A stretch of DNA of 63,727 nt, counting the filler, from Collodictyon triciliatum (Eukaryota): assembly GCA_043381765.1 (NCBI GenBank). It is 4 parts of 4 records of this genome, joined end to end, with 100 filler letters (N's around TTAATTAATTAA, not from the genome) between each part and the next. Parts side by side here need not be neighbours in the genome. Positions count along the whole stretch, not along the records: positions 1 to 22,825 come from JBHJMP010001135.1; 3 more parts are not named here. One strand, written 5' to 3'. Positions 1,552 to 9,722 of the stretch are shown in pieces. The notes below the pieces were generated by a model. It made no database searches, was not told the DNA's origin, and saw nothing but the letters and a program-made list of their open reading frames with translations. Position numbers and translations under genes: made by a program. Position 1 is the first letter of the stretch, and every line of letters starts with the position of its first letter.

Positions 1552-4500
1552 ATGTCCAGCATTTCAAGCATCTTGATACAGAGAACCTTTATTGGTGAGA
1601 TATCTTTCTCCCTTTGAATTTTTAATTTTGATTATAATATACTCACAAAAAATCGATAGGTATTCTAATTTTCTTCCAGATTTCATTCTGCATGAGCCAA
1701 GTATCGTCAATCTACACCACTGGAACCGGTCATATATTGGGTGTTTTGACGGTCGCAGTGACAGCTGATGGTAAGAAGATCGTCTCGGGTGGAGATTGGG
1801 GGGATAATACACTCAAAATTTGGAATCTTTCTGAAGGAATCTTGATTCGTTCATGGATTGGTCATTCCCATCGTATATTTAGTATCGCTATTACTCGTGA
1901 TGATTCAAAAATTATTTCTGGAAGTAGTGATGATACAATCAAAATTTGGAATCTTTCTAATGGAGCTTTGATTCACACTTTGACGGGTCACTCTTCTGAT
2001 GTAATGACAGTAACTGTGTCTCCTGATAACAAAAAAGTAGTTTCTGGAAGTTGGGATAATACAATCAGAATTTGGAATCTTTCTAATGGAACATTAATTA
2101 ATTCATTGATTGGTCATAAGGATATTATCCCTAGTGTCGTTGTTAATCCTAATAACTCAAATATTGTCTCTGGAAGTTGGGATAATACAATAAAAATTTG
2201 GAGCTTGTCTAATGGAACCTTAATTCGCACATTAACAGGCCACACCAGTTCTATTTCGAGTGTCGCTATTACCCCCGATGGATTTAATATTGTTTCTGGA
2301 AGTGGAGACCGAACAATAAAAATTTGGAAAATTTCAGATGGAGCCTTGATTCACACATTAACTGGTCACCTAAGTGGTGTTACCAGTGTCTTTTCTACCA
2401 TAAATGATTCGAAAATCGTTTCTGGAAGTTTCGATCGAACAATAAGACTTTGGAATTTCTCTGATGGGAGCTTGATTTACTCAAAGGGCTCCAGAGTTGT
2501 GAGTTTGAGTTCGTCTCAGTCGAAATCAATATTTATTTCAGGGCATTCAGACAGCATAATCAGAATCTGGAACATATTTGATGGCGATTTGATTCGCTCC
2601 CTGACTGGTCATTCAGACATAGTGAACACATTAATATTATCACCAGATAGCTCCAAAGTATTTTCTGGAAGCAATGATAAATTAATCAAAATATGGAACG
2701 TGGATGATGGAACTTTGACTCAATCGTACCAGGTACACAATGACGCAGCAAACTCAGTTGCTTTAACTGCAGACGGTACAAATATTGTATCTGGAAGTAG
2801 CGATAAAACAATCAAAATTACAAGTATTTCAGATGGAACTTTAACTCGTACATTAAATGGACACACTGGAATCGTCACAAGTGTTGCTTTAAATTATGAC
2901 AACTCAAAAATTGTGTCCGGAAGTGCTGACAAAACAATCAAAGTTTGGAATTTTTTTGATGGAACACTAGTCCAAGATATAAAAGTTCACTCTGATGCGG
3001 TCAATTCTATTGCTATAATGCCAGATGGAACAAAAATTGTTTCTGGAAGCAGCGACAGAACAATCAAAATAACAAGCATTTTAGATGGGAGTTTAATTCG
3101 CACACTTAATGGTCACACAGGAATAGTCAAAACTATTTCAATATCCTCGGACGGCTCAAAGATTATTTCTGGAAGCGGTGATAATACAATAAGAATATGG
3201 AATTTTTCTAATGGAGTAACAATACATATAATGAACGAACACAGTGCCACAGTTACAGGAATATCGTTTCTCTCGGACGGCTTGAAATTCTTGTCAGGAA
3301 GCGATGACACAACAATCAAAATGTGGAACTTTCCTGATTTCAGCTTGATTCTGACTGTTTCAGGACACACAAGTTCAGTGAATAACGTTTTTCTAAGCCC
3401 AGATAAAACAAAAATTGTTTCAGGAAGTAGTGACAAAACAATAAGAATTTGGAATTATGCAGATGGTTCTCAAGCACTTTCAATAAATGCCCATGCAAGT
3501 GCTGTGAATAGTGTAGTTGTTTCGGATGATGGAACTAAAATCGTTTCAGGAAGTAGCGATAACACAATAAAAATGTGGAATTTCTCTGATGGTTTGTTAT
3601 TAAAAACCTTAAGTGGCCATACTGCAGCTGTTCGAAGCGTTGTAATATCATCAGATAGTTCAACAATAGTATCAGGAAGTGACGATACGAATATAAATGT
3701 TTGGAGAGTATCGGATGGAACTTTAATTCTTACCTTATTCGGACATTCAAAAGGAGTGAATTCTGTTTTCATCTCTCCAGATAACAACAAAATTATATCA
3801 GGCAGTGCTGATTTTTCAATAAAAGTATGGGATATATCAGATGGAGCATTAGTAAGAACTATAACCGGACACGGAAATGCTGTCAGGTGTGTTATTACCT
3901 CTCCAGATGGAACAAGAATCATCTCTGGAAGCAGCGATAACACAATCAAAATTTGGAATATATCAGATGGCATTTTAATTAGGACAATAACTGGACACTC
4001 TAGTTCAGTAAATAGCATTTCAATATCATCGGATGGCACAAAACTGTATTCAGGAAGCAGTGATAATTCAGTCAAAATATGGACACTGTCAGATGGAAGA
4101 GAAATTCGAACACTTTTGAGTCACACCGGTTCCGTTAATTGTGTTTTTGCTACACCTGACTCAAAAATAATTTCAGCAAGCACTGATAGATTTATCAAAG
4201 TCTGGAGTCCATGCCAAGGAGGATACTTTTTCAACCAACAATCAAATACATGCGAAAAATGTCCAGCTGGCTCTTACAATAACGGAAACGAGCTCACCTC
4301 TTGTTTATTATGTCCAACTGGAACTTACAATCCATCAACTGGTTCCACAAGCCTTAGAAATTGTCTTCTGTGTGAGGAAGGGACATACAATAATCTTTTG
4401 GGTCAATCAATATGCAAAAAATGCGAAGCTGGGACGTTTAATAATATAAAAGGGCAAGTGACATGTTACAATTGTACTGCTGGATTTTACAGTGATGAAG

Positions 4501-7500: not shown

Positions 7501-9722
7501 CATCATGCACATCATGTCCAGCTGGTACATTCAACAACAAATCTGGCTCATACAATCAATCATCATGTATTTCGTGTCCGAATGGAAGCTACAGCTCAGA
7601 AAGAAGCTCATCATGCAGTTCATGCTTATCAGGATTATATCAAAAAGAGGGAATCAATAAAGACTCAAAATCATGCTATGCTTGTCCAAAAGGCTCATTC
7701 AACTCAATTTCCGGCTCATATGGAAACAAATCATGTATCGAATGTCCACAAGGTACTTGGAACGATAGAGATGGTCAGGCATCATGCACATCATGTCCAG
7801 CTGGTACATTCAACAACAAAACTAGCTCATTCAATCAATCATCATGTATTTCATGTCCAAATGGAAGCTACAGCTCAGAAAGAAGCTCATCATGCAGCAT
7901 ATGCCCGACACGCTCAACCACAACTAAAGAAGGCTCCATATCAATAGATGATTGCAAGTGCTTAGATACTTATGTGTCATATGATGGCATTTGCACATGT
8001 CCTCCAGGAAACTTTGAGGATGGAAGTGAATGTGTTCTGTGTAGACATGGCTCATACAAACCAACAAACGGCACAAATTTCTGCCTATCGTGTGGTGATA
8101 AATTTACGACAAAAAACAATGGCTCTCTTTATTCAACCGATTGCGAATGCAAGATAGGATTTGAGTTGAGAAACTCCACTTGTGAATGCAAACCAGGGTG
8201 GTATGAAAAGCAAGGAAACTGCTACGAATGTCCTTCAGATACTTATAGCGATGATTATGGACTAAAATATTGTAAAATGTGTCCCGAGGGATTTGAATGT
8301 GAAGGAACCAGTCAACCAACTGTTGCCCCTGGATATTGGCAGACTCAAACTAAAAATGGAGAATATGTTGCCTACAAATGCTTGAATGAAAATGCATGTA
8401 AAGGAGGAAACAAACCTTGTGCTGATGGATATACTGGGCCATTATGTAGTGTTTGTGACGGTGGATACGGAAAAACTGGTTATTACTGCACTAAATGCCC
8501 ACCGAAAGGAGTGAACATATTCTTGATTTTCCTGAGCTTTTTTATTCCATTTGCATTTGTTTTCTTCATGATAGAGCAATCAAGACAAACAAGAACGGGA
8601 AATATTCAAATTCTAAAATCACTCTCCACCCATTTCCAAGTTTTGTCATATTTGGCGAATTTTGATGTAAAATGGAGCTCAATCATAATTTCAGCTATGA
8701 AAATCCCAGCCCTGTTTTCATTTTCCCTTTCAATAGACAGCTACCCAATTGAATGCCAACTCGAGCTATCGATTTACGAAAGAATATTGCTTACGATGTT
8801 GAGTCCAGTAATTTTGACAGTAATCATGCTAGTTTTTGTTTTGATGAAAGATTTGAGGAGAATTTACAAAAACGAGATTTCAAGTAGTAATTTTACACTT
8901 AACCATTTTCGGGAAGAAATCATGTACTCGATGCTGGTCATGCTGTTTTTTGTCCATCCTTCAATCACATCAAGCATTGCACAAATATTTCCATGTGAAA
9001 AACTCGGGGATGTAAGATATTTGAAAGCTGATATGTCGATTTTATGCGAAGATGAAACTTACAGATTTTGGAGCAATATTTCTTTTGTTTTCCTTTTTGC
9101 CTATTGTATCGGCGGACCGCTCTTTTTTTTGGTCAGAATCATTCGCAAAAGTAGAGCGTTGAGCAATCCTACTTCGAAAACATACACACTTTTCAGATTT
9201 TTGATTGATGGATACACTGAAAAGTGCCAATACTGGGAGGTCGTCTTGATGATGCAAAAGTTGGTCATTGTGATGATAAGCACGTTCTTTCCTGCTTCGC
9301 TACAAATATACTTTGGTTTGTGGCTGCTGTTTCTGATGATTGCTTCAACCATTTATTTCAGGCCGTTCATATCCAACGTGCTGAAAAAGTCACAACTGCA
9401 ATCCCTCATGATTCTCTATTTCACCTTGATGTTGAGTCTGCTTTTCAAATACAGCAGTATTAACCAAAAAACTGAAATTGCGTTGGTGCTTTTGGTTGTT
9501 ATTCTGAATGGAGGAATATGTATCGTTTTCCTTTCAAAGGCCGGCCCTGTTGTTGTGAGGCTGTTACTCACACAATTTTTGTCCATGCTCCACTCTATTT
9601 GGAATTTGATTGCTTATAATTGGGTTTCAAATTTTATTGTCAGAAAAATAATGGGTATGAGACTTCGAAAGGATGTGGAAATGCATGATGTTACAAACCA
9701 GAAAATAGTCCAAGAGTTTTGA
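1552..9722 (+). CDS. giant surface/membrane protein: signal peptide + 20 WD40 repeats + Cys-rich CxxCPxG (GCC2/GCC3, ephrin-receptor-like) repeats + ~8-9 TM C-terminal domain (CRMP-like)
   Basis: 2676-aa ORF 1692-9722, extended by exon 1552-1594 across intron 1595-1659 (GTGAGA...TACTCAC...TAG), giving N-terminus MSSISSILIQRTFIGILIFFQISFC. GH...SGSxDxTIKIW repeats, CPAGTF repeats, GYTGPLCSVC, YLKADMSILC and FLIDGY...YWEVVLMMQKL motifs. Confidence 0.9.
1728..4206 (+). repeat. 20 tandem WD40 repeats (~42 aa each) within the giant CDS
   Basis: Counted from the translation. Repeat 7 is degenerate; repeats 9-10 and 11-12 look like a duplicated pair. Confidence 0.9.
5004..7900 (+). repeat. 279-bp (93-aa) coding tandem repeat, 10 full copies plus 1 partial
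   Basis: CP(A/V)GTFNN units start at 5004, 5283, 5562, 5841, 6120, 6399, 6678, 6957, 7236, 7515 and 7794 (constant 279-bp period). Confidence 0.95.

Follow-up and report, generated by a model that had tools for sequence, protein, structure and literature searches.

A giant gene of Collodictyon triciliatum joining 20 WD40 repeats to a cysteine-rich stalk and a CRMP-like nine-helix membrane domain

The window analyzed in this study is the whole stretch of 63,727 nucleotides (nt) from Collodictyon triciliatum (GCA_043381765.1), composed of four joined parts, the first of which (positions 1 to 22,825) comes from JBHJMP010001135.1. Its plus strand carries one very long frame, referred to here as the receptor gene, with four parts in 2676 amino acids (aa): 20 WD40 units, a Cys-rich stalk, a Cys knot, and a nine-helix domain with a cytosolic tail. 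A previous sequence-only reading had described the region as a CRMP-like multipass surface receptor tipped with extracellular WD40 repeats. The features of the gene, including a putative spliced leader, are as follows.

1552..1594 (+): putative first coding exon, with ATG at 1552 (model of the sequence-only reading); together with the exon 2 extension it gives a signal-peptide-like N-terminus
1595..1659 (+): putative intron of 65 nt (GTGAGA...GATAG, GT-AG); the acceptor 1659/1660 is common to all signal-peptide-like models
1660..1691 (+): open in-frame extension upstream of Met1692, the putative hydrophobic core of a signal peptide (…ILIFFQISFC), as read and translated from the sequence
1692-9722 (+): long frame of the receptor gene, 8031 nt and 2676 codons, standard code, with no stop inside it
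1692..4208 (+): WD40 head, 20 contiguous units (aa 1-839), from PF00400, motif cutting, and AlphaFold2
4209..8504 (+): Cys-rich stalk (aa 840-2271), ~1430 aa of Ephrin_rec_like / TNFR-like repeats with no linker to the last blade
4994..7904 (+): tandem array within the stalk, 10.4 copies of a 279-nt (93-aa) unit with 86% matches (Tandem Repeats Finder)
8376..8504 (+): membrane-proximal Cys knot (aa 2229-2271), C..C..GY...C..CP, a weak DUF7630 match and a putative counterpart of part of the CRMP 'conserved core'
8505..9539 (+): nine-helix membrane domain (aa 2272-2616), apparently related to the CRMP core and PF06011, from AlphaFold2 and phmmer
8994-9047 (+): beta-hairpin loop, predicted outside, with two family-invariant Cys (aa 2435 and 2452), from a 47-sequence alignment
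9540..9722 (+): predicted cytosolic C-terminal tail (aa 2617-2676), mostly one long helix continuing the ninth transmembrane (TM) helix; stop codon at 9720-9722

In the head, 19 stretches matched the Pfam family WD40 (PF00400; E 9.6e-165), and when the sequence was divided at the W[DN]-type motif, exactly 20 units resulted, of which 17 were exactly 42 aa long, with no spacers: the same number of canonical repeats as in the sequence-only reading. The AlphaFold2 model was all-beta with a mean predicted local distance difference test (pLDDT) of 87.4, and confidence dipped near aa 263-269 and 554-558. The head probably forms three beta-propellers of ~7+7+6 blades; the earlier estimate of about three propellers fits this confidence profile, although the division is read from pLDDT dips and not from coordinates. 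The mean pairwise identity of the units was 47% and their synonymous divergence (dS) was saturated, indicating that the array is old and was not recently homogenised. Since the signature residues were all kept over 839 aa, with no stop, in spite of the saturated synonymous sites, the head has been under long-term purifying selection. Its nearest sequence relatives were regular WD40 arrays of bacteria and fungi (24-45% identity), with names including HET-E-1, NACHT, and nSTAND1. WD40 repeats are normally found only inside cells, where canonical propellers serve as scaffolds and, in NLR-like proteins, as recognition modules. Two of these nearest relatives (P0165 and P0249) showed regular WD40 arrays followed by Ion_trans (PF00520), which is the TRPW architecture.

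The stalk was matched by Ephrin_rec_like (PF07699) in 31 stretches (E 8.6e-202), and 62 C..C[PSL].G motifs were found between aa 854 and 2194, bearing out the ~1400 aa of CxxCPxG repeats noted earlier. It contains 160 Cys, an even number, and 44 N-x-S/T sequons against 27.2 +/- 4.4 in shuffled sequences, none of 1000 shuffles reaching 44. The ratio of nonsynonymous to synonymous divergence (dN/dS) among the stalk repeat units was 0.42 over 45 pairs. At the end of the stalk, the Cys knot gave a match to PF24633 (DUF7630) of E 1.2e-4 and 22.5 bits, under the 27-bit cut-off; this family was also matched in seven of 47 alignment relatives and five of 24 large relatives, and the same pattern of Cys was recognized by eye in CRMP core sequences.

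By Kyte-Doolittle hydropathy, no 19-residue segment reached 1.6 or more before aa 2276, and about nine hydrophobic helices followed. The WD40s and the stalk are therefore on the same side of the membrane, and the statement of the sequence-only reading that no TM segment lies between them stands. For the membrane domain, an alignment of 47 sequences of relatives (A1), in which two Cys are invariant and a few further residues nearly so, was used as input to AlphaFold2: pLDDT and predicted template modelling score were 87.6 and 0.84, respectively, and the model consisted of nine long helices, a beta-hairpin loop with the Cys pair, and a long terminal helix. This last helix (362-426 in the 446-aa modelled piece) reaches into the tail, which contains eight Lys and Arg. 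The two motifs reported previously for this region were both present, as YLKADMSILC and GYTEKCQYWE...KL, a predicted inside loop carrying FL..GY.....YWE. When the loops were assigned to a nine-helix layout with the N-terminus outside and the C-terminus inside, 24 Lys and Arg fell inside and six outside, and this topology (N outside, C cytosolic) is the one predicted.

A homodimer of the membrane domain was also predicted: the score was 0.46 versus 0.00 for the best control, three runs agreed in at least 95% of contacts, and the pLDDT of the partner was at least 71. In calibration, this mark was reached by 21 of 30 solved one-chain pairs and none of 23 solved single chains of microbial origin, and by 17 of 29 solved pairs and none of 30 single chains of eukaryotes. 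The predicted interface comprises residues 304-324 and 346-358 of the 446-aa piece (helices 7 and 8), through which the membrane domain probably pairs.

The head and the stalk meet near nt 4208/4209 in frame and without a seam, the last blade running directly into the first Cys repeat. Four public runs (X1, X3, X4, and X5) were mapped onto window positions 1300-4900 and gave exact contigs of 151-215 nt, no run containing more than 0.06 of the sampled words. DNA of a soil sample (X1) gave contigs at 1584-1734 and 1834-1984, and DNA of a lake sample (X3) at 1514-1664. The junction was spanned by a contig from DNA of a freshwater sample (X5; 4189-4339) and by a 215-nt contig from a freshwater metatranscriptome library (X4; 4070-4284). 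Since X5 and X4 cross the junction exactly, the fusion is not an artefact of this assembly, and as observed in the RNA library (X4), it may be transcribed. The domain array is far beyond chance, and we are highly confident that the gene and its architecture are real. On a separate matter, these short exact contigs from soil, lake water, and freshwater point to a source organism that is low-abundance, widespread, and free-living in freshwater or soil.

Open reading frames (ORFs) in other frames or on the opposite strand over the gene (3470-4075, minus; 3113-3436, minus; 6604-7947, plus; 9101-9352, minus; 1564-1812, minus) were without a credible Pfam family, and we take them as by-products of the repeats.

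A phmmer search with the membrane domain among 1.84 billion cluster representatives gave 4652 matches at E<=1e-3, of which 881 had E<=1e-10 and 16 had E<=1e-30; with few exceptions, the matched region was the C-terminal end of a protein 300 to 6500 aa long, and the relatives inspected were the best 150 of the 4652 representatives. In a profile search (35 hits), named matches included Tetrahymena, Paramecium, a green alga (Edaphochlamys), and Dictyostelium, and none of the 35 carried the name CRMP. The architecture had been held to define the CRMPs of alveolates; with 4652 representatives, and a green alga and Dictyostelium among the matches, the family is instead pan-eukaryotic. Two fragments, P0008 (293 aa) and P0059 (95 aa), were 51% and 66% identical to the membrane domain and tail of the query; they probably represent either paralogues or the orthologues of a closely related organism. 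No related locus was found in metagenome contigs, either by a scan with the single protein or by a scan with a three-sequence alignment (A2).

The relation to CRMPs was examined by eye against core sequences of Toxoplasma, Plasmodium, Neospora, and Paramecium (supplementary file 6 of PMC9815656). The following motifs were shared in the same order, the G[FY]-5-[YW]WE distance included: the C..C..GY...C..CP knot, K....Y in helix 2, the loop Cys, a C...YL.A.MS..C hairpin loop, FL..G[FY]-5-[YW]WE...[RQ]K, and [QR]PF. Together with nine predicted helices and the charge bias for N outside and C inside, this agrees with the CRMP-like C-terminus proposed earlier, and membership in the CRMP conserved core appears to be a well-founded lead. 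The proposed TRP-like character was borne out in part. Through relatives, a link was found to PF06011, the fungal Pkd2/Flc 'TRP-like' family, which was matched by 15 of the 47 alignment relatives (best E 2.6e-14) and by the large relatives P0014 and P0023 at ~1e-10. The query itself, on the other hand, matched neither this family nor a canonical TRP or GPCR fold, and 'TRP-like' is here a family name, not a channel fold that has been demonstrated. The ESM Atlas provided leads only: DUF7630, PF06011 in 11-15% of members, Ephrin_rec_like, assorted eukaryotic taxa, and Nucleocytoviricota.

Among 24 close relatives scanned with Pfam, propeller-type repeats were found in nine (RCC1-like in five, FG-GAP in two, Kelch in one, and PQQ in one), TIG domains in 14, and Ephrin_rec_like in nine, filamin and LRR also being present in the ectodomains. 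The N-termini of the propeller-bearing relatives P0019, P0038, P0012, and P0039 were signal-peptide-like, some of them clearly so. With propellers in nine of 24 relatives, several of them behind signal peptides, a propeller head, a stalk, and a nine-helix core are thus the standard plan of the family, and this plan already uses propeller types that are usually intracellular. PF00400 was found in none of the 24, a WD40 region like that of the query in none of 156 membrane-domain relatives searched by phmmer, and a WD40 head in none of 215 (the 156 and, for the rest, precomputed Pfam lists). Conversely, none of the 120 best WD40-array relatives of the head contained the stalk or the membrane domain. 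Propeller heads being common and WD40 not being seen in the inspected relatives, the gene carries a new head on a known chassis: the unusual feature is the WD40 type of the head, not the design. Literature searches returned no description of an architecture of WD40, Ephrin_rec_like, and CRMP/PF06011, and the one paper that mentions both CRMP and WD40 cites the two separately.

The absence of a WD40 head from all 215 relatives would also be expected if the WD40 region lay outside the mature receptor, as a recent in-frame fusion or capture skipped when the leader exon is spliced to an acceptor close to the stalk, a decaying pseudogene, or an assembly join. The receptor gene has at most one intron versus the intron-rich other genes of the window, and the GC content at third codon positions (GC3) of its parts is 0.28, 0.31, and 0.41, which point in the same direction. 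However, the junction is seamless and in frame, the X5 and X4 contigs that span it count against an assembly error and weakly against skipping, and the long purifying selection seen in the signature residues also speaks against this reading. We therefore regard an excluded WD40 region as highly improbable and treat the head as part of the receptor.

Whether this head is exported depends on a leader. The sequence-only reading had announced a signal peptide, which is absent from the long frame: its first Met (1692) opens straight into WD40 unit 1. The frame is nevertheless open for 18 codons upstream of Met1692, back to a stop at 1635-1637, and the last 11 of these codons form a hydrophobic run directly after the AG at 1658-1659. 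Enumeration gave 20 in-frame GT-AG leader models, at least five of which yielded a signal-peptide-like N-terminus, all five through the acceptor 1659|1660. The score of the hydrophobic region (h-region) was 2.63 for the model starting at 1552 and 3.05 for the best alternative; an alternative first exon at, for example, 1392-1410 gave a signal peptide equally good or better, and other spliced models have leaders starting at 1379 and 1231. The extracellular placement of the WD40s would depend on a putative spliced 5' exon. Secretion is favored by the enriched sequons of the stalk, by loop charges that fit an N-terminus outside, and by relatives with the same stalk and membrane domain (P0002, P0005, and P0033), which start with clear signal peptides. 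We consider it fairly likely that the WD40s are extracellular or lumenal.

The opposite arrangement would have no signal peptide: translation would start at Met1692, the 2270-aa N-terminal part and the N-terminus of the membrane domain would be inside, and the WD40s would serve as an intracellular scaffold as in TRPW. Its attraction is that WD40 is normally cytosolic, that proteins with WD40 and Ion_trans exist (P0165 and P0249), that the leader exon is putative, and that the WD40 region shows no enrichment of sequons. Furthermore, the propeller of TRPW1 is reported to be intracellular by cryo-EM (bioRxiv 10.64898/2026.06.15.732144). However, 160 Cys, 31 Ephrin_rec_like repeats, and enriched sequons are hard to square with a reducing cytosol, and two family-invariant Cys would fall in a cytosolic loop. 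The signal peptides of the same-stalk relatives, the loop charges, and the open, hydrophobic frame after an AG acceptor upstream of Met1692 also run counter to it, and a cytosolic head is very unlikely in our estimation.

Taken as a whole, the gene is best explained, on balance, as that of a type-I-like multipass receptor of giant size, a member of the pan-eukaryotic CRMP family whose WD40 head is exported. Several observations weigh against this explanation. Concerning the leader, the signal peptide is outside the long frame, with a first exon that is ambiguous among 20 models; an h-region score of at least 2.5 also arose in 22 of 300 mononucleotide shuffles of this upstream stretch, so that sequence support for the leader is modest. 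In the four public runs, there was no RNA contig over 1300-1700 and none across the 1594/1660 joint, and X4, the lone contig from an RNA library, may derive from contaminating DNA. At 65 nt, the putative intron falls below the range of the four introns mapped in the prenyltransferase gene of the window (102-173 nt); in comparison with these introns and their weak donor consensus, it would be short but not aberrant. Concerning the head, 11 sequons versus 14.1 expected give no sign of secretory adaptation, and its low Cys content is common to 50 of 120 ordinary WD40 arrays and not distinctive. Concerning the family, the link to CRMPs consists of motifs found by eye and transitive matches, and the C-terminus of the query alone reached no Pfam membrane family, PF06011 giving no match even at E<=10. 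A paralogue or partner gene was not found in the window. Lastly, no solved structure resembled the membrane domain: the best match of a sequence profile against the Protein Data Bank (PDB) was ZorA (E 0.45-0.6); Foldseek against the PDB gave no matches at E<=1e-3, GPCR rows having E values of 0.39-1.1 and TM-scores of at most 0.23 for a query model with nine helices; and the best Z of a wide VIA-align search was 7.9, to Hrd1, which is the noise level for helical bundles. Channel activity is therefore an analogy only. Pfam also found no match to Ion_trans (PF00520) in the query, although a missing fold match does not amount to proof against a channel of this kind.

In this receptor, a short spliced leader would supply the signal peptide, and export would place three WD40 propellers, with 20 blades, at the outer tip as one more interchangeable propeller beside RCC1, Kelch, FG-GAP, and PQQ. 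A disulfide-bonded and sequon-rich stalk of ~1430 aa, perhaps tens of nanometres long, would hold the head far from the membrane. By analogy, the WD40 surfaces may bind a ligand or a surface, and this contact, or tension along the stiff, elongated stalk, may be relayed through the Cys knot to the nine-helix core, which ends in a basic helix, predicted to be cytosolic. The core would then signal inward, most likely through Ca2+ or triggered exocytosis, as suggested by CRMPs and Pkd2. A more specific proposal, in which the exported propellers are a ligand sensor on a long rigid stalk wired to a CRMP/Pkd2-type core, and contact with prey, a pathogen, or non-self leads to Ca2+ signaling or exocytosis, is tentative and less likely than not.

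A head that is extracellular or lumenal may also belong to a structural or adhesive protein, such as a coat component, an adhesin, or an anchor of organelle content, the nine-helix domain being only an anchor or escort. The amplified stalk (ten 93-aa units) and the large, varied ectodomains of the family (TIG, filamin, and LRR) are adhesin-like, and a pore or channel fold was not detectable by Foldseek and VIA-align. On the other hand, conservation in the family lies in the nine-helix domain, whose invariant loop Cys pair and near-invariant polar and aromatic motifs go beyond the needs of an anchor. The PF06011 relative Pkd2 is reported to be Ca2+-permeable, and loss of CRMP, as far as the published descriptions indicate, blocks triggered secretion and not adhesion alone. 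A purely structural or adhesive role is thus unlikely, and a signaling receptor remains the reading that we carry forward.

The same nine-helix core is found in thousands of proteins of free-living eukaryotes, beneath interchangeable heads: RCC1, Kelch, FG-GAP, PQQ, and, here, WD40. CRMPs are thereby recast as one branch of an ancient modular family of contact receptors, whose non-parasitic members are open to structural and electrophysiological studies. Should the WD40 head lie outside, this gene would provide a rare example of extracellular function for canonical WD40 propellers, and a natural place to ask what WD40 surfaces recognise there. If, further, the head is a sensor, it would be an extracellular counterpart of the WD40 recognition of NLR-style proteins and the mirror image of the TRPW prey sensors. 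If the leader exon is false, the gene is still unusual, and its topology and meaning need rethinking.

The other features of the window are as follows.

44170-45472 (+): prenyltransferase beta-subunit gene, with four introns mapped from conserved motifs
14718-17174 (+), 23447-24630 (-), 28741-29076 (+), and 37983-38369 (+): intron-split genes (Pfam)
54978-57245, 57761-59683, and 48869-50386 (-): long ORFs of 755, 640, and 505 aa, none of them matched by a Pfam family at E<=1e-3
17767-18146, 18262-18705, 22826-22925, 32110-32761, 36870-37272, 39698-39797, 42283-42761, 43413-43984, and 62580-62679: included among the runs of N

The introns of the prenyltransferase gene (44322-44423, 44558-~44671, 44719-44891, and 45010-45116) are 102-173 nt long with the donors GTTCCA, GTATTC, GTAGTG, and GTACTT; apart from GT, a shared donor signal is thus almost lacking in this genome. 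The intron-split genes comprise an Ap4A phosphorylase (two Pfam halves), a protein kinase, an ankyrin-repeat protein, an Rcd1/CNOT9-like exon, and a SAM-domain exon. Large differences in GC3 separate the genes of the window: 0.73 in the kinase, 0.35 in the Ap4A phosphorylase, and 0.28-0.41 in the receptor. The three long ORFs are possible lineage-specific genes. The window has 13 runs of N (gaps or masked stretches), several of them pairs of 44-nt runs 12 nt apart, which explain the ORFs listed in all six frames there.

Among known systems, the closest are the CRMPs (CRMPA/CRMPB of Toxoplasma, CRMP1-4 of Plasmodium, and CRMP1/2 of Tetrahymena), which, like the query, have a large ectodomain of Ephrin-receptor-like/EGF-like Cys repeats followed by a Cys knot close to the membrane, nine helices, and a C-terminus in the cytosol, with membrane domains that are predicted to pair. 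They are described as having Ephrin-receptor-like and EGF-like repeats and a core of two Cys-rich modules with nine TM helices (PMC9670195; PMC9815656), the N-terminus being outside and the C-terminus in the cytosol, and proteins of Dictyostelium have nine-helix modules like theirs (PMC9815656; PMC9670195); the predicted pairing concerns the membrane domains of CRMPA/B (PMC9815656). CRMPs of Toxoplasma and Tetrahymena are reported to be required for triggered exocytosis (discharge of rhoptries and mucocysts). They differ in carrying MAR, Kringle, lectin, or EGF modules, whereas the query has 20 canonical WD40 repeats. The host of the query is not a ciliate because the frame is open under the standard code.

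The fungal PF06011 proteins (Pkd2 of S. pombe and Flc1-3 of S. cerevisiae) share with the predicted layout of the query an extracellular domain, a multi-helix membrane domain, and a cytosolic helical tail. The description of Pkd2 includes, besides a signal peptide and an extracellular domain, a TRP-like membrane domain and a coiled coil in the cytosol (PMC6727746), and a stretch-activated Ca2+ permeability is reported for it (PMC9727806). The ectodomain of these proteins is small and ML-like, in contrast to the 2270-aa head and stalk of the query, and similarity between PF06011 and solved TRP channels was not detectable here by Foldseek and VIA-align with the query model.

TRPW, from choanoflagellates and other protists, resembles the query in the fusion of N-terminal WD40 propeller(s) to a multipass membrane signaling domain in a protist. 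TRPW1 is a proposed sensor of bacterial prey, with the WD40 propeller placed inside by the cryo-EM work cited above (bioRxiv 10.64898/2026.06.15.732144). However, the membrane part of TRPW has six helices of the voltage-gated-channel type and the propeller is intracellular, whereas the query has no Ion_trans but a CRMP-like nine-helix core, and its WD40s lie beyond a disulfide stalk, outside if secreted.

The head alone is most similar to the arrays of fungal HET-E/NWD and bacterial NACHT/STAND proteins, which gave the best sequence matches and have the same 42-aa period without spacers. The WD40 arrays of HET-E/NWD are near-identical and fast-evolving, and the host proteins of these and the STAND arrays are cytosolic, in contrast to the old array of the query with its 47% identical units. 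No NTPase domain was found in the domain map of the query, which has no room for one, or among 25 of the 48 Pfam rows.

A further parallel is plant CRINKLY4 (CR4). The blades of CR4 are 'crinkly' or RCC1-like in sequence, not canonical GH-WD. Its ectodomain consists of a seven-bladed propeller, for which the authors use the name WD40 domain, and then a TNFR-like Cys-rich domain (bioRxiv 10.1101/2020.08.10.245050). CRINKLY4 differs from the query in having a single-pass anchor with a kinase, one propeller, and a short Cys-rich domain; it is, by analogy, a precedent for an extracellular propeller with a Cys-rich stalk.

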